Shown here piece by piece: positions 7,195 to 27,797 of a DNA stretch of 32,000 nucleotides. The notes under the pieces were generated by a model that saw only the letters and a list, made by a program, of their open reading frames with translations, was not told where the DNA came from and made no database searches. The position numbers were made by a program, and so were the translations under genes. Position 1 is the first letter of the stretch, and the number at the start of each line of letters is the position of its first letter. Source of the DNA: Candidatus Heimdallarchaeota archaeon (GTDB taxonomy: Archaea > Asgardarchaeota > Heimdallarchaeia > Hodarchaeales > Hodarchaeaceae); the NCBI GenBank assembly GCA_020353515.1, contig CP070695.1, positions 2,261,921 to 2,293,920 of the forward strand, in the 5' to 3' direction.

Positions 7195-8103
7195 ATGATG
7201 GAAGAGACTGGCCAGTTAGTTTCTAGCTTTGTCAGGAGTTTAGAAACTCATCCTAATGGAAAAGCAATTATAGGGATTGTTGAAACAATCTTAGCTGACG
7301 ATACAGGGGCCATTGACTCTGCCTACATTAAAGCCCTCAAGGAATTGAGTAATAATAATATGGCTTTACTTGTCGATTTCTGGATTTTACGTGGAATGAT
7401 CCTGAAAGAAGAGGGTCAAGACCCTGAGGCGGTCCAATTATTTTTTGAGGCAACCCAATGGCTTCCTGATGATGTAAGTATCTGGCTACGGATCGCAGAT
7501 ATTTTTAAGGCAAAAAATGAACTTCTTAAAGCATCTTTTTTCCTTACTGAGGCTCAATCACGTTTAAAATCCCATGAATCCATTACAGATGAGTTGAGCT
7601 CGCTGTTACGCCAAATAGAGAAGCGTCTTTCTCTTCCCCCAGGAATTCCACCTCAGACGAATGAAGAAGCTGAACTTCAGGATAAGTCAAACACGATGAA
7701 ACAACCTGAAGTGGATGAAGCAACTCCTCTTTCAACTGTCTCTATTCCCTCAGTTCGACCAAAAAGCTGCTTTAAGATCCCTCCTGAAGCTGAAAATGTC
7801 TGGAACCTTGCATTAGAATGTTTTGAAGAGGGTACTAAAGGAGATAATCTAATCTATCTTAATGCCTTTATTCATTACGCTCATTCGACGGTGAGAGAGG
7901 TTTTAGGTTTAGATGGGAACTTTAAAGCAGGATTAGACGCTAAAGTGGCTCAGTATGGACTGTTTAATTTCCAACGTTTTTTTAATAACCTTAATTCTCT
8001 CAGGAATGCTGTTGTTCATGATAACTACCTTCTCTCTAAAGAAGAGGCTCAAGATATCCATACTCACGTTACTGAGTTTCTAGCTTTTATGCAAAAGCAA
8101 TAG
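7195..8103 (+). CDS. TPR-like N-terminal region + disordered linker + C-terminal HEPN-like domain protein
   Basis: The C-terminal ~105 aa is helical and carries SLRNAVVHDNY (Rx4H; R at 8002-8004, H at 8017-8019). The N-terminus has TPR-like helices (ILRGMILKEEGQDPEAVQLFFEATQWLPDD...). Confidence 0.5.
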   Translation: MMEETGQLVSSFVRSLETHPNGKAIIGIVETILADDTGAIDSAYIKALKELSNNNMALLVDFWILRGMILKEEGQDPEAVQLFFEATQWLPDDVSIWLRIADIFKAKNELLKASFFLTEAQSRLKSHESITDELSSLLRQIEKRLSLPPGIPPQTNEEAELQDKSNTMKQPEVDEATPLSTVSIPSVRPKSCFKIPPEAENVWNLALECFEEGTKGDNLIYLNAFIHYAHSTVREVLGLDGNFKAGLDAKVAQYGLFNFQRFFNNLNSLRNAVVHDNYLLSKEEAQDIHTHVTEFLAFMQKQ

Positions 8104-8123
8104 GATTCGATAATTGAGACTTT

Positions 8124-9002
8124 TTAATTGTTGGAGGTTGTGGTCTGTATCTCTAAATCGTTGACATAGTGGTTGATGCCTGGGGCAACCGTTTTGATGG
8201 TTCTTGTGTTACTAGTTTTAATCGTGAGATGAGGAAACGATTCTTCAATCACAGTTTGAATTTGGGGCCGCCAATCGGTTGGTTTCCGTGAGCTTGATAA
8301 TCCATGAGCATGTATGATCCCTCCTCGTTCTTGACGCAAACTCGCTAGTGCAATCTTAAACTGAACATTATCAATGGTAAAATATCCCATGAGTACTCGA
8401 TTTGCCCAATCCTTTGGCGTGAGTTTCCTGTTATCTCCAAGTACTGCTTGGTATTGTTCCTTCACCTGATTTTCTTGGATATTCTTCTCAAGGAACATGA
8501 AAGCGTCAGGGTTGATCTCTATTCCTATGATCTTTACTGTTGGGTTGTGGACTGCTATTGGCAATGATAAGTTTCCTACACAGGCAAACATATCGATAAT
8601 TTGCTCAGGTTCCTGGCAGTTTTTAATCATTCGTTGTCGTTCTGCATGATTTCCATTGGAAAATGTCAGATTCAGGGCATCAATCCAGAATTTGCACCCT
8701 AGTTCTTTATGAAGTGTGACAGTATTGGGTTCTCCTGCTAAAACTTCATTATCTGGTTGACGTGTTGTGGTAGTTGTTATTCCTACCTTGTGGGCAACTG
8801 TTTTCAGTTCTGGTAGGAATTCTAAATATTTCTCACCAATTTCCCTCTTCCATGGTAGTAGTTCTGGGTTGAGATTTAATATCCCAACTTTCCCTACCCG
8901 TTTCCAGCGTTTTGGGAGTAATGAAATAAGATGTGCTGGTAGAATTTTTTGGTCTTGAATTGTTTGCTTGATTTGTTGGAATGGAGTTCGTTTGGAAGTC
9001 AA
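8124..9002 (-). CDS. Met-10+/Trm5-TYW2 family SAM-dependent tRNA methyltransferase
   Basis: [17 protein letters not shown]...[23 protein letters not shown] matches the Trm5/Taw2 class I MTase core. The TTG start overlaps the uS14 stop (ATTGA). Confidence 0.7.
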
Positions 9003-12042: not shown

Positions 12043-12235
12043 CTTGTTCTTCCTTATCAATTGTGAGGATTCGTGCTACTGTTCGTCTTAATTCACGAAC
12101 TCGGCCAGCAGATTCAACTGATCCTGTTCGAGCTTTGCCTCTCAGTGTCAGTAACTCTGTTTTTAATTCTTGTAACTTCTTTTCTCGTTCTGAAGACGTC
12201 ATATTTCGAATTTCTGCTTTACGTAATATAACCAT
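12023..12235 (-). CDS. rpl29: 50S ribosomal protein uL29
   Basis: MVILRKAEIRNMTSSEREKKLQELKTELLTLRGKA... The ATG at 12235 fits the family N-terminus. The ORF-track GTG at 12244 is an alternative start. Confidence 0.9.
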   Translation of the reverse strand: MVILRKAEIRNMTSSEREKKLQELKTELLTLRGKARTGSVESAGRVRELRRTVARILTIDKEEQDVPKSP

Positions 12236-12240
12236 TTTTA

Positions 12241-13038
12241 TCACTTATCTTCATCAAAATCTTCAGATTTCAGGAGTTCTTCGTCCTCTTCTGGTTTTTC
12301 TTCTTCAACTTCAGTCTCAGTTTCCGCTTCAGGTATAGGTTCTTCTTTAACTTCCGTTTCAGGTAAAGGTTCTTCTACTTCAGGAAGTATTTCTTCTTCT
12401 TCCTCTTCTTCGATTACTTCCTCCTCCTCTGGTTTACCGAATACATTAGGAATGAGTACGGCGTCATCAGGAAGCACTGCGTCAGGTTGCATTATCTTAA
12501 CATGAACTCCAATTACCCCCTGTTTTAGGGTAACTTCCATTACTGTATCTTCTACATATTTCTTAGAAGGTTCCCCACATTTAGCCACGAATCCTTCTCT
12601 GAATACTTCTGATCGTGCACGTTGGGAGGTTAGTTTTCCTTTTATTGTAATTTCGCAGCCCCGTGCCTCTGCAGACATGATACGGCGAACCAGGGCGTAT
12701 CCAGCTCTACGAAAATGAAACCCCTTTTGGATCTGTGAGATCAGTCGTCCTGCCATTACTCGTGAGTTTAACCTCGGATTTTCAAGATCTTTGATCTCTA
12801 GTTGAGGAGTTTCTAATCCGTAGAGGTGTTCGAGCATTTCAGTAATTTTCCTCACGTTTCGTCCACGTCTTCCGATTACCATTCCTAGACGTACGGCATG
12901 GATTACTACACGATGCCCCATTGGTGTTTTATGAATTTCTACCTTTCCTTGTCCCGCTAGCTGTAATTCTTCATTGAGGAATTCACTTACTTGGACGTAT
13001 TGTAAGTTTCTATTTAGTAATTCCTTTCTTGCTGCCAT
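12241..13038 (-). CDS. rps3: 30S ribosomal protein uS3 with a ~65-aa poly-acidic C-terminal extension
   Basis: KH domain (VIGRRGRNVRKITE) plus the uS3 C-domain. The tail is KPEEEEVIEEEEEEEILPEVEE...EEDEELLKSEDFDEDK. Confidence 0.95.
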   Translation of the reverse strand: MAARKELLNRNLQYVQVSEFLNEELQLAGQGKVEIHKTPMGHRVVIHAVRLGMVIGRRGRNVRKITEMLEHLYGLETPQLEIKDLENPRLNSRVMAGRLISQIQKGFHFRRAGYALVRRIMSAEARGCEITIKGKLTSQRARSEVFREGFVAKCGEPSKKYVEDTVMEVTLKQGVIGVHVKIMQPDAVLPDDAVLIPNVFGKPEEEEVIEEEEEEEILPEVEEPLPETEVKEEPIPEAETETEVEEEKPEEDEELLKSEDFDEDK

Positions 13039-17169: not shown

Positions 17170-18881
17170 CTTCGAATACAACTAATAGTGGAAAGGTTCA
17201 AATGGATGAAAAAACTGACAAGTTGGTTGAGATCAAACGAAAAAGGAAGGAATGGGAAGAAGTCTACAGTAAAACTGTAAAAAAGCATCCAGAGCGGTTA
17301 CAGAAGTTTATGACAACTTCTAGTAAACCTATTAGTCAAATATATGATCCTACAGATCTTCCTGCGAACTGGGACTATCAAGACGCCTTAGGATATCCAA
17401 GCATGTTTCCTTTCACACGCGGTGTTCAACCTACAATGTATCGTGGCCGATTATGGACCATGCGTCAGTTTGCAGGATTTGGGGGTGCTGAAGAGACTAA
17501 TCAGCGGTTTAAGTTCCTTTTAGAACACGGAATGACAGGCTTAAGCGTTGCTTTTCATCTTCCTACGATATATGGACGTGAATCAGAGCACCCTATGTCT
17601 CTTGGAGAGGTTGGAAAATTAGGTGTAGCTATTGATACGTTAAAAGACATGGAAATCTTATTTGACGGAATTCCTCTTGATAAGGTTACTACCTCAATGA
17701 CAATTAATGCACCTGCTTCTATTCTACTTGCAATGTACATCGCAGTCGCAGAGAAACAGGGGGTAAGTTCCGATCAAATTGGTGGAACCATCCAAAATGA
17801 CATCCTTAAGGAATTTATTGCTCAAAAATCGTATATCTTTCCCCCAAAACCATCAATGCGAATTATTGTGGATATTATCAAATACTGCTCTGAACATGTT
17901 CCACGCTGGAATACTATCTCTATTTCAGGATATCATATCCGAGAAGCAGGATCCACTGCGGTTCAAGAACTGGCTTTCACTTTAGCTGATGGATTAGAAT
18001 ATGTGAGATGGGCTGTGGAAGCTGGGATGGATGTTGATGACTTTGCACCCCGATTATCATTCTTTTTTAATTCGCATAATGACTTATTTGAAGAGATAGC
18101 TAAGTATCGGGCTGCCCGACGTATTTGGGCTCGTCACATCCGTCAATATCAACCGAAAAACCCTCGTTCCATGTGGCTACGATTTCATACTCAAACTGCA
18201 GGATGTTCCTTAACAGCTCAACAGCCCTATAATAATGTCGTACGAACTACAGTCCAAGCGTTAGCAGCGATATTAGGTGGAACACAATCCCTTCACACCA
18301 ATTCATTAGATGAAGCATTAGCTTTACCTAGTGAGGAGGCAGTTGAGATTGCATTGCGGACTCAACAGATACTGGCCCATGAAAGCGGGGTAACAAATAC
18401 AATTGATCCATTAGCAGGGAGCTATTTTATAGAAGCGTTAACAAATGAAATGGAAGAACAGACCGAGGAATATTTTTCCAAGGTTGAACAGTTGGGAGGA
18501 GTTATTCCCGCAATAGAAAAAGGATTTTTCCAGCAAGAAATAGCGAATGCGGCATATCAATATCAAAAGGAAATTGAAGGAAACCAGCGAGTAATAGTTG
18601 GAATTAATGATTTTAGTTCCGATGAGGAAATCGAAGTTCCACTCCTTCAAATCGGAGAAGAGATAGCTGAACGACAGATAGCACGCTTACATCAAACGAA
18701 AAAGGAACGAGACAATGAGGCAGTAGGAGAAGCGCTAGCAGAGGTACGTCAGGCTGCTGAAGGTACCGATAATTTAATGCCCCCTATTCTGAAAGCTGTG
18801 AAAGCCTATGCCTCTGTTGGTGAAATTTGTGACGTCTTACGAGAAGTCTTTGGAGAATGGAGAGGAGATCAATTGATCTGA
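17166..18881 (+). CDS. Methylmalonyl-CoA mutase, large (catalytic, N-terminal-domain) subunit
   Basis: [39 protein letters not shown] and RFHTQTAG motifs. The TTG at 17166 overlaps the cobA stop. The ATG at 17202 is an alternative start. Confidence 0.9.
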
Positions 18882-18897
18882 ATGAACTTCCCAGTAG

Positions 18898-19311
18898 GTG
18901 AATAGAGTGACACGAAAAATTAGAGTCTTATTAGCAAAACCTGGATTAGATGGCCACGATCGCGGTGTGAAAGTTGTCGCACGGGCATTGAGAGATGCGG
19001 GAATGGAAGTAATCTATACTGGATTGCATAAGAGCCCAGAACAGATAGTAGAAGCAGCTTTACAAGAAGATGTTGATGTTATTGGATTATCTAGCCTAAG
19101 TGGATCTCATATGGCTCTATTTCCGCGAATTATCGAATTACTTGAAGAGAACGACATGATCAACGATACCCTTGTAGTCGCTGGCGGGATCATCCCTGAT
19201 GTTGACGTTCCTAAGTTAAATGAAATTGGAATAAATGGAATTTTTGGTCCTGGAACTGATACCACGGGCATAGTAAAATTCATCAAGTCAAATCTCAAGC
19301 GATCGTTGTGA
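18898..19311 (+). CDS. Methylmalonyl-CoA mutase, small B12-binding subunit
   Basis: [36 protein letters not shown] carries the DxHxxG cobalamin-binding motif. Confidence 0.9.
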
Positions 19312-19498
19312 AAGTAAACCTTCTTAGACTTCTAAAGGATAGAAAGTTATAAAGATCATAATTTTTGTCTATAAACAGTTAAGTAACCGTACCACAATTA
19401 ATAAAAGGGTAAATTGGATTTGATAGTCTTGCTAAAGTTCTTCTAAGGATAAGTAAGAAGAATTACCCTTCATGGTCAATCAGGTTGTTCTAATCAAA

Positions 19499-19519
19499 TA
19501 CTATTAGCAATTAATAGTA
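19499..19519. promoter_or_regulatory. 8-bp inverted repeat (TACTATTA-gcaat-TAATAGTA) upstream of the ABC operon; possible operator
   Basis: A perfect palindrome read directly in the 330-bp AT-rich intergenic region, about 125 nt upstream of the ATG at 19643. ATTAGCAA recurs at 19533-19540. Confidence 0.2.
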
Positions 19520-19595
19520 CTTTAGAGCCGCATTAGCAAAATTAAAAAAGGATATTTTCTAGAAAAAAACTACATTTCTTCTAAATATCAAAATA

Positions 19596-22572
19596 TTAAA
19601 GGAAATCATTCTATTTTCATGAAAAACGGATAGGGCGACAAAATGGGACGAGGTTCCAACTTCAGGGGAAAACCAAGATTATTATTTCAAATTATCAGAA
19701 TCAATCTTAAGAAATCACTCATTACGCTAATTGGAATGACAATTGCACTTGCAGTGATAGCTGGAAGCTTAATTTATTTAGAATCAACTGAAGTGGATTA
19801 TTATTTAAAAGTTTTAGAAGATCCTTCCTATGAAAAACATTTGTCTTATCGTATTTATGATTATAAAAAGGAAAATCGGTCTGTAGAAGACATTACTAGG
19901 ATTCACAGTACTCTTAATGGTAAAATTGCTAAATTTAACGGGTCTGGTATTTTTATTCAGTCATCCTATCCATTTCTGTGTAGAATGTCTAGAAGCACAT
20001 TATTACTGAACACAAGTCAAAGTTATCGGTATATTGGGCTTCTCCTAGACGAATCAGTGATAGAAGATTGTATAAATGGCAGTCAAAACCCAAAAAACCA
20101 AGATGAGATGTTGGTTTTTATTCCAAGTGATGCTTCGACTGAACTAACTATAAACCAAACTATAAAACTCCCAATAATCTATAAACATAAAAGAAAAGAA
20201 CTATACTATAATCTCAGTTTGAATATTTCGGGGGTCTTAACACCTACAAGTTTACGTCCTTCCTCTCCTCTATCAAACATAGTTAGTCTAAGTCAAATTC
20301 AATTCATAATGAACCTGAACCAGTATTTATCAGTCCTAAACACACTAAGAAACCTTTCTAGTAGGACTGTTTCCAATACAATGGAGTTCAATTATCAATT
20401 TAATTTTTCTATGTTGAACCACCAGAATGCCCATCGAATAGCCCATGATTTGGTCAATATGCGAAAAGCTTGTTGGGATTGGAGAATTTATCAGGACTAT
20501 ACTCGATATGAGATCTCTCTCCCTTCTTCATCAGGAACATTACTCTATACTCTTCGAGGAGCAGTCGATGACTTTGATGCTTTTTTTTCGAGTTTTATAA
20601 TTTATTGTATACCAGCTTTTATTGTCACTTTCCTGTTTGTGCAGTTTTCACTAGGTATAATCAATGAAGGTCGAAGAAAAGCTCTGGTCATGTATAAAAT
20701 GCGAGGAATTTCCAAAAGATTCATATTTACTGTGTTATGTGGTGAAACATTTATTCTCGCACTTATTGCATCGGGTTTAGGGGTAATTCTAGGAATTCCC
20801 ATTCATATCTTGATCTCTACAACAAGTGATTATCTCAGTTTTGATCTTTCAAAATGGCCAAATCTTACAATTATTTCTCAAGCTACCATTATATCTGTGA
20901 TTGAATTCAGCTTATGTTTGACTTTCCTGTTGAATTTTCGGACAATACTTCATCTCACTAAGGTAAATATCGTCATTTTGGAAGAGGAGGCAAGTAAAAA
21001 GAAGAAACGGAAAAGAGGCACGATTCGTCAAAACATTGATGTTTTTTTGTTATTACAAGGAATAATCGGAATTTTTATCTTGAATCTGTTTTTAAGAATC
21101 ATAACTGAAGTTGATCAGGGTGATGCTGGGCTCTTAATGGCAATAATTTTTCCACTTGCTCTTTTAAGTCCGTTTTGTTTGTTGATTGGCTTTATTTTTT
21201 CATTTAATAGGTTAATGCCAATCATATTTGATAAATTAGGGGGAATATTATGGAAGAGGGATTTTAAATTATTTGCTATGGCTGTTCGTAATTTATTTGT
21301 GAACATGAAAATGACGTCTCGGACAACACTGCTAACAGCTGTAACAATCAGTTTTTTAATGATTCTATCTTCACTACCTATCTCTTTTAATCAACAAAGA
21401 ATTAACACGGCATATTATAGGGCTGGAAGTGATCTTACTATTCGAACATATTCATTGAATGAAAGTGTGAAGGGAAATCTCTCAGCAGAATTAAACGAGG
21501 TTCCTGGGTTAACCACAACATTTATTTCAATTAAAAGATTTTATCTAGAGAATAAAGAGCCTGATATTGAAGTTATGGCAATCGAAGCCAATTTCGATGA
21601 GGTTGCGTTTTGGAAAGGAAACTATGCAAAACATCCTCTTAGTGATCTTGTTCACACACTTTATAGCTCTAAAGCACAATTCCCAATAATTTTAGATTCT
21701 AGGTCAATGAAAATTGAAAACTTAACTATTCATAGCAATTATATTCAAAATTTTGATTTTACAATTTCATTTAATTTTACCATCGTCGAGACTACCGATT
21801 TTTGGCCTGGATTAATTGAAAGACATAAAGATGAGCAGAGATTTCTCATCATAAAACGTTCAATGTTTAATAATTTGATTAATTATTCTACTAGTAGTAC
21901 ATACATACATAGTAGTACATATCTGTGGGGTAAAGTAGATCCTAGTACGGACGCGAATGAAGTTATTTTACAGGTTAAAAATATAACATCAAAATATGAA
22001 CTCGATATAAGGTATTTTGCACTTACAGCTAATAAATTAGAAATAGATCCTGATTCTCTTGAAGCTACATTCCTTTGGGGCGTCACTAATTTCAATTTTC
22101 TTGTTTCTCTCTTAGCATTATTGCTCCTATTATTTTTATCTTCAATCGCACGAATGACCAACCAATTAAAAGAAATCGGATTAAGTAGAGCATTAGGTAT
22201 GAAATTCCGTCAGGTTTTTTTCTTAATGGTTATTGAACCACTTCTATTAGTCTTGATAAGTGGGATACCAGGAGGACTAATCGGTTTAGGATTGTTAATG
22301 CTTTTCATCAATCTTGGTCAAGGCCCTCCATTAAGTTCTGATCCACCGTTCATTTTAACGATTGATATACCATCTATACTCCTTATCTATGGTTCAATAC
22401 TAATCACAGCAATCATAGCTGGTTTAATTACTTCGTACCGAGTAACTAGAGCTGATGTATCGAAGATACTAAAAGTGGAGTGAGTGGAATGTTTTTAGAA
22501 TGTAAAGACCTTATCAAAATCTATCCTTCTCCTGTTGAGGGATTGATGTTTCCAGCATTACGAGGATTGGAT
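19596..22572 (+). repeat. Tandem duplication, copy A (leader + permease + first ~90 nt of the ATPase gene)
   Basis: The leader ...TAAAGGAAATCATT...ACGGATAGGGCGACAAAATGGGACGAGG matches 22573-22627. The 3' end carries the ATPase 5' fossil. Confidence 0.8.
19643..22483 (+). CDS. ABC transporter permease, double FtsX/MacB-type module (paralogue 1, 946 aa)
   Basis: Two FtsX-like blocks (NEGRRKALVMYKMRGISKRF... and TNQLKEIGLSRALGMKFRQVF...). Each follows a TM helix plus a ~220-260-aa hydrophilic, sequon-rich domain. About 10 TM segments by eye. Confidence 0.85.
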   Translation: MGRGSNFRGKPRLLFQIIRINLKKSLITLIGMTIALAVIAGSLIYLESTEVDYYLKVLEDPSYEKHLSYRIYDYKKENRSVEDITRIHSTLNGKIAKFNGSGIFIQSSYPFLCRMSRSTLLLNTSQSYRYIGLLLDESVIEDCINGSQNPKNQDEMLVFIPSDASTELTINQTIKLPIIYKHKRKELYYNLSLNISGVLTPTSLRPSSPLSNIVSLSQIQFIMNLNQYLSVLNTLRNLSSRTVSNTMEFNYQFNFSMLNHQNAHRIAHDLVNMRKACWDWRIYQDYTRYEISLPSSSGTLLYTLRGAVDDFDAFFSSFIIYCIPAFIVTFLFVQFSLGIINEGRRKALVMYKMRGISKRFIFTVLCGETFILALIASGLGVILGIPIHILISTTSDYLSFDLSKWPNLTIISQATIISVIEFSLCLTFLLNFRTILHLTKVNIVILEEEASKKKKRKRGTIRQNIDVFLLLQGIIGIFILNLFLRIITEVDQGDAGLLMAIIFPLALLSPFCLLIGFIFSFNRLMPIIFDKLGGILWKRDFKLFAMAVRNLFVNMKMTSRTTLLTAVTISFLMILSSLPISFNQQRINTAYYRAGSDLTIRTYSLNESVKGNLSAELNEVPGLTTTFISIKRFYLENKEPDIEVMAIEANFDEVAFWKGNYAKHPLSDLVHTLYSSKAQFPIILDSRSMKIENLTIHSNYIQNFDFTISFNFTIVETTDFWPGLIERHKDEQRFLIIKRSMFNNLINYSTSSTYIHSSTYLWGKVDPSTDANEVILQVKNITSKYELDIRYFALTANKLEIDPDSLEATFLWGVTNFNFLVSLLALLLLLFLSSIARMTNQLKEIGLSRALGMKFRQVFFLMVIEPLLLVLISGIPGGLIGLGLLMLFINLGQGPPLSSDPPFILTIDIPSILLIYGSILITAIIAGLITSYRVTRADVSKILKVE

Positions 22573-22614
22573 CTAAAGGATTCATTTAATTCTTATGAAA
22601 TACGGATGGGGTGA
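22480..22614 (+). CDS. 44-codon ORF derived from a duplicated 5' end of the ABC ATPase gene (fossil or micro-protein)
   Basis: (V)SGMFLECKDLIKIYPSPVEGLMFPALRGLDLKDSFNSYEIRMG*. It aligns codon for codon with ATPase residues 1-33 (25423-25521). Its GTG overlaps the permease-1 stop (GTGA). Its stop lies 4 nt before the permease-2 ATG. Confidence 0.45.
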   Translation: MSGMFLECKDLIKIYPSPVEGLMFPALRGLDLKDSFNSYEIRMG

Positions 22615-25521
22615 CAAAATGGGACGAGGTCACAGTATCAGGGGAAAAATAAGATTATTACTTCTAGTTCTTCGCATCAATCTCAAGAAATCATTCATTA
22701 CACTTCTTGGAATGACAATTGCGCTGGCAATAATAGCTGCAAGTCTAATCTTTTTAGAGTCAAACGAAATAAATTATTATTTAGAAGTTTTAGAAGACCC
22801 TGATCTTGGAAAACCGTTTGAATTCCGGATTTATGAAGACACGAGGGGAAATTACTCTATCAAAGACATTACTATGGCTCATGGCCTTGTTAATGAGAAA
22901 TTTGCTGAATATAATTTAAGAGATTTCTTTATTCAATCGAAATATCCATTCCTGTTTAGAAAAAATAGAAAAACACTATTTCGAAACACAACAGAAACCT
23001 ATTATTACTTTGGACTCCCTATGAATGAGTCTATCATCAAAGATTGTGTGAATGGAAGCGACATCCCTAGGGCACAAAATGAAATTTTGGTATTTATTCC
23101 CAATCATATTCCGATTGAGTTAAATATAAATGAAACCGTTAATCTCTCACTCTCTTATAAGTACAAAAATAATGAACAGTTTCATAATCTTAGTCTGAAA
23201 ATCTCAGGAATATTAACTGAAACAAGCATACGTTCTTCCTCTCAATTATGGGATATGGTGAATCTATATCATCGAAGCCAATTCATCATGAACGTTGATC
23301 AGTACTTATTAGTTCTAAACACATTAAAAACTCTTTCAGATGAGTCTATTTCAAATTCCTTTTATTTATATTACCAGTTAGATGATTCTACTGTTAATAC
23401 TCAAAATGCACGCCAAATAATTTATGGATTAGTTGAATTTGGTGGAAAAGACTGGGATTTTAGTGCTCAGATTAATTCAAAGATGTTTGATATCTATTAT
23501 GGATCTGCATGGAAATGGTTTAACACAATTTCAATGAGAATTGGCGAATTTAGATACTTGTTTTTCTTTTTTACCATCTTTTGTTTACCTGCTTTTATTA
23601 TTACCTTCCTGTTAGTGAATTTTTCTCTTGGTATCATCAATGAAGGCAGAAGAAAAACCCTAGCTTTGTATAAAATGAGAGGGATTTCGAAAGTATTCCT
23701 TTTCACTGTTTTATGTGTTGAAACAATGACACTAGCACTTATTGCTTCGGTATTGGGGGTAATTCTGAGTATACCAGTTTATTTTTTGATTTCAGCTACG
23801 ACTGGTTATTTAAGCTTTGATTTAACAAAGTGGCCAGATGTAACTATAATCTCTCGAACCACTATTATTTCGGTGATTGGATTTAGTTTGTGTTTCACTT
23901 TTCTGTTACATCTTCGGACAATAATTAAACTTACTAATGCAGGCATAGTTTTCTTGGTAGAAGAGGCCAGTAAAAAGAAAAAGCGTAAAAGGGGGGCAAT
24001 TCAACAAAATATTGACGTTTTTCTACTACTTCAAGGAATACTCGGTATCTTCTTCCTCAATTTATTCATGAGAATCTTGATTGAAGCTGGTCAGCTGGAA
24101 AGTGGCTTAATTATTTTCATGTTACTAATTAGCATTCTTGTCTTTTTAAGCCCTTTATCTCTTCTGGTTGGTTTTATTCTCGCATTTAATAGATTAATGC
24201 CAGTAATTTTAGATAAATTAGGGGGAATATTATGGAAAAGAGATTATAAATTGTTCGTTATGGCAACACGAAATTTATTTGTTAATATAAAATTTACTAC
24301 CCGAACAACATTGCTGATAGCTATTAGTATCAGTTTTCTAATGGTTATGTCTTCATTACCCGTCTCTATGAATCAGTATAACATTGATTCGACCTACTAT
24401 AAAGCTGGGAGTGATCTCGTCATTCGGGCAGGGGATTTCTTGGGGGAAAGAGCTTTAAGGAATCTTTCAACAGGATTGAATAATCTTCCTGGTTTTACTA
24501 CTACAATTGTTTCATTTACAGATTATAGAACTAGTAATAAAGAATTTATAGGAATTGAAGATAATTTTCATGAAGTAGCTTTTTGGAAAACACACTATGC
24601 AAAAAAACCTCTCAGCAGCCTTGTATCAGTACTCTATAACTCTAAAGCCCAAGTTCCAGTAATTATTGACTCCTTTTCAGCTAAACTTGAAGAATTAAAT
24701 GTTAATGAAACCTATCCTCTTAAAATAGGTTCAGACGATCCCCTGAACTTAACCATTGTGGAAAAAACAGATTATTGGCCTGTATTAATTCGAAGAGTTC
24801 AAAATAAGGAGAGATTTTTCATAATGAAGCGTTCAACGTATAGCGAATTGATCAGCGATGGTGATTCCTATATCTGGTGTAAAATTGATCCGATTACCAA
24901 TGAAGCTATTGAACAGGCTAAAAATATGACACAAGAAGTAGGAGTTGATATTAATGATTTTTATTTTACTGCAGAGAGAGTAAAACTCGATCCAGATTCT
25001 CTCAAATCAATTTTTCCTTGGATTATCACAAATTTTAATTTTCTTGTTATGCTTATAGGATTATTATTACTTTTGGTTTTATTTACAATGACACGTGTTA
25101 CCAACCAATTAAAAGAAATCGGATTAAGCAGGGCATTAGGGATGAAATTTCGACAGGTTTTTATTCTAATGTTTCTTGAATCCTTTCTATTAATCCTGAT
25201 AAGTGGGTTACCAGGAGGACTAATTGGTTTAGGATTATTAATGATTTTAATTAACTATGGTCAAGGCCCTCCATTCAGTTATGGACCCCCATTTATCTTA
25301 ATGATTGATATTCCATCTTTATTATTTATTTTCGGTTCGATCATAATTATTACAATATTTTTAGGATTCATTGCGTCGTACAGAGTAACCAGAGCTGATG
25401 TATCTAAAATTCTTAAAGTGGAATGAGTATAATGTTGTTAGAATGTAGAGACTTAATCAAAATTTATCCTTCCCCTGTGGAAGGATTGATGTTTCCCGCA
25501 TTACGAGGTCTGGATCTTCAG
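22573..25521 (+). repeat. Tandem duplication, copy B
   Basis: Colinear with copy A throughout. The junction lies at the shared heptamer TAAAGGA. Confidence 0.8.
22619..25426 (+). CDS. ABC transporter permease, double FtsX/MacB-type module (paralogue 2)
   Basis: Colinear with paralogue 1 and shares its C-terminus YRVTRADVSKILKVE. The ATG at 22619 (MGRG...) is homologous to the paralogue-1 start and is preceded by GGGGTGA. The ORF-track start at 22595 is probably an artefact of the duplicated leader. Confidence 0.85.
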   Translation: MGRGHSIRGKIRLLLLVLRINLKKSFITLLGMTIALAIIAASLIFLESNEINYYLEVLEDPDLGKPFEFRIYEDTRGNYSIKDITMAHGLVNEKFAEYNLRDFFIQSKYPFLFRKNRKTLFRNTTETYYYFGLPMNESIIKDCVNGSDIPRAQNEILVFIPNHIPIELNINETVNLSLSYKYKNNEQFHNLSLKISGILTETSIRSSSQLWDMVNLYHRSQFIMNVDQYLLVLNTLKTLSDESISNSFYLYYQLDDSTVNTQNARQIIYGLVEFGGKDWDFSAQINSKMFDIYYGSAWKWFNTISMRIGEFRYLFFFFTIFCLPAFIITFLLVNFSLGIINEGRRKTLALYKMRGISKVFLFTVLCVETMTLALIASVLGVILSIPVYFLISATTGYLSFDLTKWPDVTIISRTTIISVIGFSLCFTFLLHLRTIIKLTNAGIVFLVEEASKKKKRKRGAIQQNIDVFLLLQGILGIFFLNLFMRILIEAGQLESGLIIFMLLISILVFLSPLSLLVGFILAFNRLMPVILDKLGGILWKRDYKLFVMATRNLFVNIKFTTRTTLLIAISISFLMVMSSLPVSMNQYNIDSTYYKAGSDLVIRAGDFLGERALRNLSTGLNNLPGFTTTIVSFTDYRTSNKEFIGIEDNFHEVAFWKTHYAKKPLSSLVSVLYNSKAQVPVIIDSFSAKLEELNVNETYPLKIGSDDPLNLTIVEKTDYWPVLIRRVQNKERFFIMKRSTYSELISDGDSYIWCKIDPITNEAIEQAKNMTQEVGVDINDFYFTAERVKLDPDSLKSIFPWIITNFNFLVMLIGLLLLLVLFTMTRVTNQLKEIGLSRALGMKFRQVFILMFLESFLLILISGLPGGLIGLGLLMILINYGQGPPFSYGPPFILMIDIPSLLFIFGSIIIITIFLGFIASYRVTRADVSKILKVE

Positions 25522-26316
25522 ATACCACCTGCTGAATTAATATCAATAATTGGTCCTTCAGGAGCAGGAAAATCCACCCTTTTGCGACTCATTTGTACAT
25601 TTGATCACCCCAGCTCAGGAGAAATCTGGTTTGATGGAAAATTGGTAAATACTTTCACAAATGCCGAATTGGAAGAGTTTCGTCTGAATAAGGTTGGTGT
25701 TATGTATCAAGCCCCTGAAGACAATCTTATCTGGGATTTGAACACAATTCAGAACGTTATGCTCCCAATGCGGTATTCAGGCAAATTTAGAGGGAATGAA
25801 AAAGCAAGGGCGGAGGAATTATTAGAAAAAGTTGGATTAAAAGGGAAGACTCATCGCAAACCGTCTCAACTTTCTGGTGGTGAGCAACAACGTGTCTCGA
25901 TTGCTATTGCATTAGCAAATGAGCCCAAGCTCCTTCTTGCTGATGAACCTACTGGGGAGTTAGATAGTGTTACTACAGCAGTGATTATTGATTATTTGAA
26001 GCAACTAAATAAGGATGATGGATTAACAATTCTCGTAGTGACGCATGATAAACGCTTTGCAAAAATGACGGATAAGACATATAGAATTTTGGATGGAAGG
26101 TTAACCACATATCATATTAGATCTGAAGAATCTGTTGAGGTTGATCTCGAGGAAGAAGTCGTGATTGTTGACTCCCAAGGTACTCTGAGACTCCCTCGCG
26201 AGGTGTCTCATCAGTTTAAGGATTTAAAAGCAGTTAAGATCCAAGTCAAGAATGGAAAAATCGAATTGGTTCCTTTCAAAGATAAAATGAAGAGTAAGGA
26301 GGGGGAACAAAAATGA
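25423..26316 (+). CDS. ABC transporter ATP-binding protein (MacB/LolD-like NBD) with a ~70-aa C-terminal extension containing a SpoVT/AbrB-like segment
   Basis: Walker A GPSGAGKST, signature LSGGEQQR, Walker B LLLADEPTGELD, H-loop VVTHD. The tail is VIVDSQGTLRLPREVSHQFKDLKAVKIQVKNGKIELVP. There is an ATGA overlap with the permease-2 stop. Confidence 0.9.
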   Translation: MSIMLLECRDLIKIYPSPVEGLMFPALRGLDLQIPPAELISIIGPSGAGKSTLLRLICTFDHPSSGEIWFDGKLVNTFTNAELEEFRLNKVGVMYQAPEDNLIWDLNTIQNVMLPMRYSGKFRGNEKARAEELLEKVGLKGKTHRKPSQLSGGEQQRVSIAIALANEPKLLLADEPTGELDSVTTAVIIDYLKQLNKDDGLTILVVTHDKRFAKMTDKTYRILDGRLTTYHIRSEESVEVDLEEEVVIVDSQGTLRLPREVSHQFKDLKAVKIQVKNGKIELVPFKDKMKSKEGEQK

Positions 26317-26993
26317 CTGTGAAACAAGTCCTTTATGATTTGCAACAGGTTCATAGATGGTATGAAAGCAGTGTGGAGGTCGTGAAAGCGGTTGATGGGG
26401 TCGATCTTCAGATTTTTAAGGGTGATTTCATTGCAGTTTTTGGTCCTTCTGGTTCTGGTAAAACAACATTCCTTAATCTTTTAGCAGGACTTGATAAGGC
26501 CACAGGGGGGTCAATAGTGTTTAATGACGTAAACTTGAATGATTTGAGTGATTCAGCGATATGTGATCTTAGAAGACACGAAATAGGAATTATCTTTCAG
26601 TTTTATAACATGCATCCTTCCTTAACTACTCAGGAAAATGTGGAATATCCTATGTTGATCGCAGGGATTCCTGCAAGTCAAAGGAGTCAAAGAGCGACAG
26701 AATTACTGAAAGAGATCGGTCTTCTTGACAAAAAGGATAACTTTCCTGCTGAATTATCAGGGGGAGAAAAGCAACGAGTAGGAATCGCTCGTGCCTTAAC
26801 AAATGAACCTCAGGTGATTATTGCTGATGAGCCAACGGGGGATCTCGATTCTGAAAATGCTGAAGAGATAATTAACTTGTTGTTATCAGTGAATAAACAG
26901 GGCACAACGATTGTAATGGTTACTCATGATGAATCCCTCTTAACAGAAGATATGAGAATTTTACACTTGATTGATGGGAAAATATTTGGATAA
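26313..26993 (+). CDS. ABC transporter ATP-binding protein (second, distinct NBD)
   Basis: GPSGSGKTT, LSGGEKQRVGIARAL, IIADEPTGDLD and MVTHD motifs. There is an ATGA overlap with the upstream ATPase. Confidence 0.9.
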   Translation: MTVKQVLYDLQQVHRWYESSVEVVKAVDGVDLQIFKGDFIAVFGPSGSGKTTFLNLLAGLDKATGGSIVFNDVNLNDLSDSAICDLRRHEIGIIFQFYNMHPSLTTQENVEYPMLIAGIPASQRSQRATELLKEIGLLDKKDNFPAELSGGEKQRVGIARALTNEPQVIIADEPTGDLDSENAEEIINLLLSVNKQGTTIVMVTHDESLLTEDMRILHLIDGKIFG

Positions 26994-27214
26994 AACCTAA
27001 TATTAGTTCTCTACATCACTATCAATATTTAGGCGCTCTCTATTACTATCATCTCTGATTTAGATGTCCTGACGTTGAATGAAATTGGATCAGGGAGATC
27101 AACAATCCTGTTAATGAAATCGATATCATATGGTAAATTTTATCAAGTCGACTCTTAAGCGCTCTTTGTGAGAGAACCCATCACAAGACTTCTTAAGGGT
27201 TGAAGGCTAGAAAT

Positions 27215-27361
27215 ATGACGACGTATTTGTGTCAAAAATGCCATCAGGAGATTGATCCTGCGGAATTAGAAACTTTGCCTGGGATTCGATGCATTATATG
27301 CGGTCATCGAATATTATTGAAAAAACGTCCCCCCATCATCAAACGGTTGAAAACTGATTAA
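27215..27361 (+). CDS. rpoP: DNA-directed RNA polymerase subunit P (RpoP / Rpb12 homologue)
   Basis: My own translation gives MTTYLCQKCHQEIDPAELETLPGIRCIICGHRILLKKRPPIIKRLKTD*. It has a zinc ribbon (CxxC...CxxCG) followed by ...R.L.K.R. It is 48 aa and below the ORF-track cutoff. Confidence 0.85.
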   Translation: MTTYLCQKCHQEIDPAELETLPGIRCIICGHRILLKKRPPIIKRLKTD

Positions 27362-27485
27362 AATAAGCCAAAGGACGATTTCCACAATTCTCTGTTATTC
27401 GATAGGTTTATATTTTGTTAAGGATAAAGATAGATCAGCTAATAAATTATTCAGCTAACTAAAAATCTGAGGTTAATAGTTCAAA

Positions 27486-27797
27486 ATGGGTAGTATATGC
27501 AAGACCTGCGGTCTGCCAGAAGAGTTATGCGCTTGCTCTGATATCGCACGAGAAGAACAAACGTCAATTAGGGTTTATATTGAGAAACGAAAATGGGGAC
27601 GCGAGGTAACGGTCATTGATGGACTGTCTAAAGATATTGATCTACGAAGCTTGTCCAAACGTCTGAAGAAGAGTTTGGCCACAGGTGGAACAACAAAAGA
27701 TGGCCGAATTGAACTTCAGGGTAATTTCCTTCGTTTAATTTCACCAATTCTTATCGATGAAGGATTTCCTGAAACGTCTATTGAGATACGCGGCTGA
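27486..27797 (+). CDS. Translation initiation factor aSUI1 (eIF1 homologue)
   Basis: N-terminal CKTCGLPEELCAC knuckle plus the SUI1 core IRVYIEKRKWGREVTVIDGL...LATGGTTKDGRIELQG. Confidence 0.9.
   Translation: MGSICKTCGLPEELCACSDIAREEQTSIRVYIEKRKWGREVTVIDGLSKDIDLRSLSKRLKKSLATGGTTKDGRIELQGNFLRLISPILIDEGFPETSIEIRG

Follow-up and report, generated by a model that had tools for sequence, protein, structure and literature searches.

A truncated ATPase gene start between two permease genes of an Asgard archaeal ABC operon is probably a recombination scar

The window analysed here, a stretch of 32,000 nucleotides (nt) from a 4.94-Mb contig labelled Candidatus Heimdallarchaeota, contains an ABC transporter operon in which permease 1, a 44-codon open reading frame (ORF), permease 2, ATPase A and ATPase B follow one another on the + strand (Table 1). 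The short ORF, referred to below as the mini-ORF, starts with a fragment that corresponds to the first 33 codons of an ATPase A gene and will be called the fossil. Our analysis suggests, with a probability of roughly 70%, that the fossil is a recombination scar produced when a second permease of a foreign type joined the operon, and not a conserved element. Related loci from Asgard metagenome-assembled genomes (MAGs) and metagenomes are labelled L001 to L014; L005 was taken from ENA, L010 and L013 from JGI (3300056897 and 3300061472) and L011 from SRR35816759.

Table 1. Positions of the operon's parts in the window, and of the permease leader in the window and at related loci.
Feature	Positions	Strand	Description
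Permease 1 leader	19597–19642	+	~46 nt; begins TAAAGG (19597–19602); Shine-Dalgarno-like GGGCGA
Permease 1 (type 1)	19643–22483	+	946 aa (amino acids); two FtsX domains; Pfam FtsX, E value 1e-18
Initiation region inherited from the ATPase gene	22477–22491	+	GGAGTGA, then GTG (22480) and ATG (22489)
Mini-ORF	22480–22614	+	44 codons from GTG, or 41 from ATG 22489
Fossil proper	22480–22579	+	type-1 ATPase A codons 1–33 and base 1 of codon 34
Junction microhomology	22574–22579	+	TAAAGG; ATPase codons 32–34 and permease leader
Leader copy 5' of permease 2	22574–22618	+	ATG 22595 in frame with permease 2
Permease 2 (type 2)	22619–25426	+	935 aa; two FtsX domains (Pfam)
Live ATPase A	25423–26316	+	297 aa from ATG 25423, 294 aa from 25432; Pfam ABC_tran
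ATPase B	26313–26993	+	226 aa; second nucleotide-binding subunit; Pfam ABC_tran
Leader copies, window	19597–19645; 22574–22621		
Leader copy, L005	4745–4790		
Leader copy, L006	425–470		
Leader copy, L004	7960–8005		
Leader copy, L001	225–270		

ATPase A has a nucleotide-binding domain (NBD) similar to those of LolD, MJ0796 and MacB, with matches in the PDB to LolD, MJ0796, MacB and FtsE (E values 1e-39 to 1e-47), and shares 93% identity with the ATPase of L007. Taken together, the Pfam and PDB matches describe an operon that combines FtsX-type permeases with a LolD/MacB-like ATPase. The presence of two FtsX domains in each permease, and of ATPases near LolD, MJ0796, MacB, FtsE and YbbA, is shared with the MacB/LolCDE/YbbAP-like (type VII) ABC transporters; in contrast to these, the permeases here are ~940 aa long, and two different ATPase subunits are shared by two permeases. 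No solved relative of the ~940-aa permeases was detectable by sequence.

The fossil aligns with the live ATPase A gene without gaps, both over codons 4–33 (22489–22578 against 25432–25521) and over its full extent (22480–22579 against 25423–25522). Codons 4–33 of the two copies show 13 nucleotide differences in 12 codons, nine of them synonymous and three leading to replacements (F/L, K/R and K/Q). The GTG of the mini-ORF overlaps the stop codon of permease 1 as GTGA (22480–22483), where the live junction has ATGA (25423–25426), and its TGA stop (22612–22614) is located 4 nt before the ATG of permease 2 (22619), a stop-near-start arrangement of the kind expected for translational coupling. An earlier reading of this DNA (the original prediction) had described the ORF as the 5' end of the ATPase gene, retained with an open frame between the two permeases. 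The gapless alignment bears this out, and the coordinates, junction geometry and codon counts given at that time were all reproduced.

Lysine 33 of the fossil (AAG) is the ancestral ATPase residue, whereas the Gln of the live copy is derived, so that the homology extends through 22579. The conserved start of the ATPase is probably the ATG at codon 4, since NCBI annotates a protein of 294 aa and a homologue from Thorarchaeota begins there; with this start the mini-ORF would comprise 41 codons from 22489. Walker A (GPSGAGKST) begins at residue 44 of the live protein and the fossil ends at residue 33. It contains neither Walker A nor the signature motif nor Walker B, and the 41-mer has no Pfam match. 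The last 11 codons of the mini-ORF are read-through into the duplicated permease leader, and its stop codon sits within the GGTGA motif of that leader. Of the other two frames past codon 33, one ends sooner (TGA, 22596–22598), while the other would fuse to permease 2.

The transition from ATPase to leader can be located closely. ATPase sequence can be followed in the fossil as far as 22579 (GATCTAAAGG), the match to the leader (TAAAGGA) begins at 22574, and from 22580 onward only leader sequence is present. Because the two matches overlap at 22574–22579, the join lies within the 6-nt microhomology TAAAGG. This hexamer occurs in ATPase codons 32–34 (CTAAAGGT in L007 and L010) as well as in the leader of permease 1 (TTAAAGGA, 19596–19603). 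The homology of 19597–19642 to 22574–22618 indicates that the repeated unit consists of the leader, a permease and the first 33 ATPase codons. The fossil therefore has the marks of a gene remnant, namely homology to the 5' end of a gene that stops abruptly at a join, microhomology at that join, and absence from the orthologous locus described below. The junction is real, as L009, an independently made Logan assembly, spans it and agrees with the window at 100% over 17589–23130. An assembly chimera was considered and ruled out, since the homology at the junction amounts to only 6 nt and L009 reproduces the junction at 100%.

The closest syntenic locus lacks the fossil. L005 shares with the window the upstream methylmalonyl-CoA (MM-CoA) mutase gene and the B12-binding gene, followed by a permease with 74% identity to permease 1. 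The last 280 nt of L005 overlap L012 at 99.6%, and L012 runs into full-length ATPase A and ATPase B genes; past ATPase B, a further ~170 nt of L012 match the window. Both the mini-ORF and a second permease are absent at this combined locus (L005+L012), where only an intact ATPase gene follows the permease; the comparison of orthologous loci, which the original prediction had proposed as a check on a retained ORF, thus went against it. Every examined locus with a complete permease gene (L004, L001/L008 and L003) likewise has one permease only, with ATPase A and ATPase B behind it. The searches turned up no further close paralogue of the permeases or ATPases from this 4.94-Mb contig that might have served as donor or conversion partner.

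Neighbour-joining trees place permease 1 with L005, L006 and L007 (74–80% amino acid identity; 74–75% with L005 and L006) and permease 2 with L004 (66%), L001 being the next relative. A word-index protein search with permease 2 found no relative closer than L004. At the nucleotide level, the 3' end of permease 2 has ~91% identity to L010 (synonymous divergence, dS, 0.30), and L010, L011 and L013 are all of the permease-2 type; in these three, a full ATPase A comes after the permease 3' end and, like the window's live copy, starts with ATG. The dS between permease 3' ends is 0.8–1.3 for type 1 against type 2 and 0.24–0.42 within a type. Each clade contains single-copy members with a full ATPase gene next to the permease. 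The original prediction had derived both permeases from one duplication, a claim that does not survive their placement in different clades: neither the permeases nor the fossil and the live ATPase are the sister copies that a tandem duplication in situ would yield.

The ATPases present a different picture from the permeases. Among the window, L007, L010 and L012, the dS is about 0.45–0.65 both for ATPase A (codon 34 to the end) and for ATPase B; for the pair L007 and L010 it is 0.22 in ATPase B and 0.64 in ATPase A. The first 99 nt of the ATPase differ at only 8 positions between L012 (type 1) and L010 (type 2). The permease is a deeply diverged, exchangeable cassette between conserved flanks.

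The structure of the locus is exactly that which a tandem duplication with a microhomology junction yields, and an ancient duplication in situ of the leader, the permease and 33 ATPase codons, followed by reciprocal losses and by occasional gene conversion from the live 5' end that left the fossil apparently intact, has to be weighed. Like the junction fragments left by such duplications, a direct repeat of ~100 nt flanks the added permease and ends abruptly at a 6-nt microhomology, and the leader and the 5' part of a gene have been copied as one unit. ATPase A and ATPase B differ little across both permease types, and the 8 differences in 99 nt between type-1 and type-2 5' ends are as homogenisation would produce them. 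The copies, unlike those of a simple tandem duplication, are not sisters, each being closer to sequences of other genomes, so that a simple recent duplication within this genome does not fit. As for an ancient one, several independent losses would be needed, the flanks on either side of the locus match a relative without a second permease, and permease 2 nests with L004 in the clade that holds L001, whereas the product of a duplication preceding these species would fall outside it. Furthermore, the window's live copy is the most distant relative of the fossil (16 of 99 nt), which excludes recent conversion. We therefore consider an ancient duplication improbable.

Recent gene conversion from the live copy can be dismissed on divergence as well. 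Using the Nei-Gojobori method, the comparison of fossil and live copy gives a proportion of synonymous differences (pS) of 0.458, a dS of 0.71, a nonsynonymous divergence (dN) of 0.059, and a ratio of the two (omega) of 0.08; the corresponding values for the permease pair, which has 58% amino acid identity, are dS 1.04, dN 0.288 and omega 0.28. With the dS of the fossil (0.71) not far below that of the permeases (1.04), the original argument that the synonymous differences speak against recent conversion holds.

The same prediction had asked whether omega in the fossil/live pair is below 1. A pairwise codon test by maximum likelihood gave an omega of 0.035 and rejected neutrality (likelihood-ratio statistic 20.95, p = 4.7e-6). 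Had the fossil evolved neutrally since a duplication in situ, its branch should carry ~16 replacements; the total seen is 3–4 (P about 2e-4). The fossil/live pair as a whole evolved under purifying selection. This result counts in favour of a mini-ORF kept by selection, either as a micro-protein that mimics the first beta strands of the NBD or as an ORF that couples the translation of permease 1 to that of permease 2 by termination and reinitiation; the intact frame, the preserved ancestral Shine-Dalgarno motif and start codon, and the position of the stop 4 nt before the permease-2 ATG are compatible with such a role.

The pairwise value does not, however, describe what happened in the fossil. 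Over 99 nt, the fossil differs from L007 at 8 positions, from L012 at 10, from L010 at 14 and from the window's own live copy at 16 (L006, 8 of 85 nt). Its last 49 nt are identical to the live gene of L007, and the 3' end of permease 1 together with the fossil has 85–97% identity to L007. At 12 of the 13 differences, the fossil has a state that live ATPase genes in other genomes share; the shared states include the GTG start, K9, CTT11, ATC14, TCT17, GTT19, GAG20, CCA25, GGA29, TTG30, CTA32 and K33. The sole coding change unique to the fossil is TTT (L5F), a replacement, and one further fossil-only base lies in codon 3, in the spacer that separates the Shine-Dalgarno motif from the ATG. States found only in the live copy include K9R, TTA11, CCC25, GGT29 and K33Q, with V34I and Q35P just downstream. 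With live genes of other genomes nearer to the fossil than the window's copy is, the pairwise omega reflects two live lineages; the mostly synonymous divergence built up between these while both were live, and not in the fossil.

The results from a branch codon model, run on three topologies, agree with this. The terminal branch of the fossil has a length of 0.08–0.11, compared with 2.7–2.9 for the live copy. The omega of the fossil branch is 0.40–0.56, a value that rests on only 1–3 changes of its own and differs neither from 1 (p = 0.82–0.88) nor from the background of 0.02–0.03 (p = 0.13). The step taken in the original prediction, from mostly synonymous divergence to selection on the fossil, accordingly fails. 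The use of fossil-specific synonymous changes as a clock was also dropped, because such changes accrue whether the segment is live or not and cannot date the orphaning.

It is the 5' end of the live ATPase A (25423–25530) that is the outlier, differing at 14–17 of 99 nt from L007, L010, L012 and L004. Codons 4–33 of this gene carry 9 changes on their own branch (6 synonymous and 3 replacements), against ~2.9 predicted from the remainder of the gene, and the permease-2 3' end beside it differs from L010 at no more than 4 of 60 nt. This could reflect a mosaic donor, a divergence that protects the repeat from deletion, or an adaptation of the initiation region.

The searches for relatives also bear on selection. 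Among 15 billion proteins no homologous mini-ORF was found, and the 41-aa sequence is alone in its 90% cluster. When 1.84 billion representatives were searched with the 41 aa, only the sequence itself, one full ATPase, an 86-aa protein and a spurious repeat protein were recovered; a homologue in at least two diverged genomes, as expected of a conserved small ORF, was absent from the protein collections searched. As a predicted gene, the 41-aa version appears in the Logan contig L009 alone. The mini-ORF is missing from the syntenic relative and from those relatives examined in which the region upstream of the permease is covered. Moreover, the tail of the peptide is leader read-through and the peptide is without Walker A; coupling, for its part, leaves the amino acids free and so does not explain a low dN. 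Together with the origin of the pairwise omega in two live lineages and an own-branch value indistinguishable from 1, these observations make a selected mini-ORF unlikely in our judgement. Of the original interpretation, then, the identity of the fragment as an orphaned ATPase 5' end stands, and the selected micro-protein or coupling ORF is not supported.

On this question, the only informative statistic is the count of replacements on the branch of the fossil itself, which is 1. The synonymous rate along the terminal branch of the window's genome is 0.12 per site, and neutral evolution of the fossil would be compatible at the 5% level with an age below about 0.06 substitutions per site. The single replacement thus implies either a scar whose age is below about half the terminal branch or one that is constrained. 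Tandem structures between direct repeats are unstable, and gene fragments in prokaryotes are short-lived. For these reasons, and because no other genome shows the ORF, we think that the scar is likely to be young instead of constrained.

Several observations weigh against a recombination scar. Neutrality of the fossil over the whole terminal branch predicts ~9 replacements, against the 1 found (P = 0.0014), a deficit that counts in favour of selection; by our own estimate, with a flat prior on age, the replacement count favours constraint about 4–5 fold. The contigs of L010, L011 and L013 begin inside the permease, and the organisms could carry the same arrangement upstream of it. The dS of ATPase A and ATPase B is about 0.5 among the four close relatives whatever the permease type, and this low divergence leaves a small probability for an ancient tandem array with repeated losses. 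Finally, informative sites are divided about 1:1 between the two types over +300 to +900 of ATPase A, so that the right boundary of the incoming segment is not fixed.

Outside that interval, the informative sites trace a mosaic. At the 3' end of permease 2, the window matches L010 over L012 by 42:8, and L010 is still favoured in the first 300 nt of ATPase A (13:6). The preference is reversed only in the last third of ATPase B (+1201 to +1571), where L012 is favoured over L010 by 36:16, and downstream of ATPase B (98:19). A sharp right-hand breakpoint within ATPase A was not found. Mismatches between ATPase A and L007 have a density of 17% over the first 99 nt, falling to about 11% beyond them, a suggestive difference that is not significant. 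The mosaic, together with the synteny with L005, fits a resident type-1 operon that was joined by a type-2 block.

The mosaic is less easily reconciled with a different origin, in which two adjacent complete operons, of type 1 and type 2, were fused by a recent deletion running from ATPase A codon 34 to position -46 of the second leader. The TAAAGG microhomology could have mediated such a deletion, and both adjacent operons and collapsed ATPase remnants occur in this family (a fusion in L014 and a downstream permease in L012, both described below). Yet the last third of ATPase B and the ~170 nt downstream match the type-1 locus L012 and not L010, and the gene that follows ATPase B in L012 is a distant paralogue (36–40%), not a type-2 permease. 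A deletion between neighbouring operons is for us a doubtful explanation, and both it and the ancient duplication are less parsimonious than a recombination scar. Even under either of the two, the low pairwise dN/dS would still need no function of the fossil.

We propose the following origin for the scar. The ancestor would have possessed a single operon of leader, type-1 permease, ATPase A and ATPase B, as seen in L005+L012. An incoming, diverged block would have supplied a type-2 permease with its ~45-nt leader in front and the beginning of a type-2 ATPase A behind. The left join would have been illegitimate and located at TAAAGG, connecting codons 32–34 of the resident ATPase to position -46 of the incoming leader, while on the right homology would have resolved the exchange at some point within ATPase A or ATPase B. 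The first 33 codons of the resident ATPase would thereby have been severed from the rest of their gene and become the fossil. The differences between fossil and live copy would have been inherited from two working lineages or have arisen later in the live copy; because both lineages were working genes, the differences are mostly synonymous. Judged from the sequences alone, the event resembles homology-facilitated illegitimate recombination, which has been described as a general mechanism (PMC3240628), or an unequal exchange between diverged alleles.

A parallel is provided by the arrays of Rhs, contact-dependent inhibition (CDI) and type VI secretion system (T6SS) effector-immunity genes, in which cassette displacement leaves orphan gene fragments (PMC5361080). 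In these arrays, as proposed here, an incoming module is attached through homology at one end and by an illegitimate join at the other, and a piece of the resident is kept as an orphan; the cassette is deeply different between strains and its constant neighbour little. The present case differs in that it concerns an ABC transporter operon of an Asgard archaeon, in which both permeases are full length. In addition, the orphan derives from the constant gene, being the ATPase 5' end, whereas in Rhs, CDI and T6SS arrays it is a 3' toxin tip or an immunity gene.

Although no selected function needs to be assumed, the mini-ORF is probably translated into a peptide of 41–44 residues without Walker A. 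The initiation region of the ancestral gene has been kept, with GGAGTGA (formed by the conserved permease C-terminus KVE together with the stop codon), the GTG and the ATG, and this makes translation likely. The arrangement of this initiation region, with its GTGA overlap, recurs at all live permease/ATPase junctions. In prokaryotic operons, stop/start overlaps and termination-reinitiation couple the translation of adjacent genes. The GTGA overlap at the end of permease 1, and a stop codon 4 nt before an ATG and inside a Shine-Dalgarno motif, are features of such coupling, and the geometry suggests that ribosomes may be handed on from the mini-ORF to permease 2. In contrast to coupling elements proper, both features were here inherited from the ancestral junction and the leader: GGTGA is also present in the leaders of L005, L006, L004 and L001, and its conservation implies that the position of the mini-ORF stop was inherited. 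A dependence of permease 2 on coupling is not apparent, since it keeps its own conserved Shine-Dalgarno-like motif, GGGGTGA (22608–22614), and its start is unmasked; no structure masking the permease-2 start was found, the fold of 22470–22660 having a z-score of 0.15 against shuffled sequence. These points speak against selection for coupling too. It is conceivable, if improbable, that the ATPase start was co-opted and stays open and nearly unchanged for that reason, either because ribosome delivery to the newly added permease 2 sets the ratio of the two permeases or because the 41-residue peptide, which matches the first beta strands of the NBD, binds the shared ATPases or a permease.

The permease leader itself has several noteworthy features. 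Its ~45 nt are conserved at the nucleotide level across lineages whose permeases are only 55–65% identical. The leader of permease 1 contains a 4-codon upstream ORF, ATG AAA AAC GGA TAG (19619–19633), and this ORF is characteristic of the type-1 leaders (ATG AAA AAC/TAC GGA TAG). The leaders of permease 2 and of L004 have lost the TAG, which brings the ATG in frame with the permease (MKYGWGDK-MGRG), and the TTCTTATGAAAT motif of the permease-2 leader resembles the leader of L004. A 5-bp GUGAC/GUCAC pairing flanks the start codon on both sides. A search for RNA families gave no Rfam match at E values up to 1 over 19300–27600.

A second remnant was found in L014 (JBHLPY010000112.1, an Asgard MAG), in which positions 8001–8261 hold an intact 86-aa ORF that fuses residues 1–40 of ATPase A to residues 186–223 of ATPase B. 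This ORF is located directly upstream of a permease-ATPase operon of the same family. Further along (12225–12716), a 163-aa ORF resembles an N-terminal fragment of a permease, and two more FtsX permeases then follow in tandem. As the L014 remnant is independent of that in the window, remnants of this kind are by-products that rearrangement in this operon family yields repeatedly.

Other details of the related loci are recorded here. In L012, another FtsX-type permease gene (2156–2413) begins ~400 nt downstream of ATPase B; it has 36–40% identity to the N-termini of permease 1 and permease 2 and no counterpart in the window, so that the two loci diverge ~170 nt after ATPase B. Metagenome contigs of this family are cut off at reproducible positions: L005 (7613–7697) and L006 (3288–3372) stop at one and the same base within the ATPase 5' end, and L010 and L011, which are independent assemblies, both begin 317 nt upstream of the permease stop codon. 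Conserved segments common to the permease types seem to behave as repeats during assembly, hiding the arrangement in the closest relatives. Scans of metagenomes with a permease alignment, and with a degenerate 29-nt pattern of the ATPase 5' end, found nothing. Finally, ATPase A has a C-terminal extension of ~70 residues past the NBD (window 26104–26313; ...VVIVDSQGTLRLPREVSHQFKDLKAVKIQVKNGKIELVPFKDK...), which is kept in relatives and which ATPase B is without; it has no significant Pfam match, the best being RL10P_insert with an E value of 0.0026, below the family cut-off.

The locus is, first of all, a cautionary case. A comparison of a gene fragment with its live neighbour gave a dN/dS that is highly significant (p about 5e-6) and yet uninformative on selection in the fragment, because the two sequences descend from different live lineages. 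If it were true that the fragment is kept to hand on ribosomes, it would show that a recombination scar has been recruited into the regulation of an operon, although nothing here requires such a hand-on. As a scar, the fossil is a further example of a gene remnant at a recombination junction, here in an ABC operon of an Asgard archaeon. The deep divergence of the permease types next to little-diverged, mosaic ATPase genes suggests that frequent recombination shuffles permease cassettes between conserved flanks in these Asgard populations, and the locus illustrates this exchange in Asgard archaeal ABC operons through an aberrant event that would have added a permease instead of replacing one.

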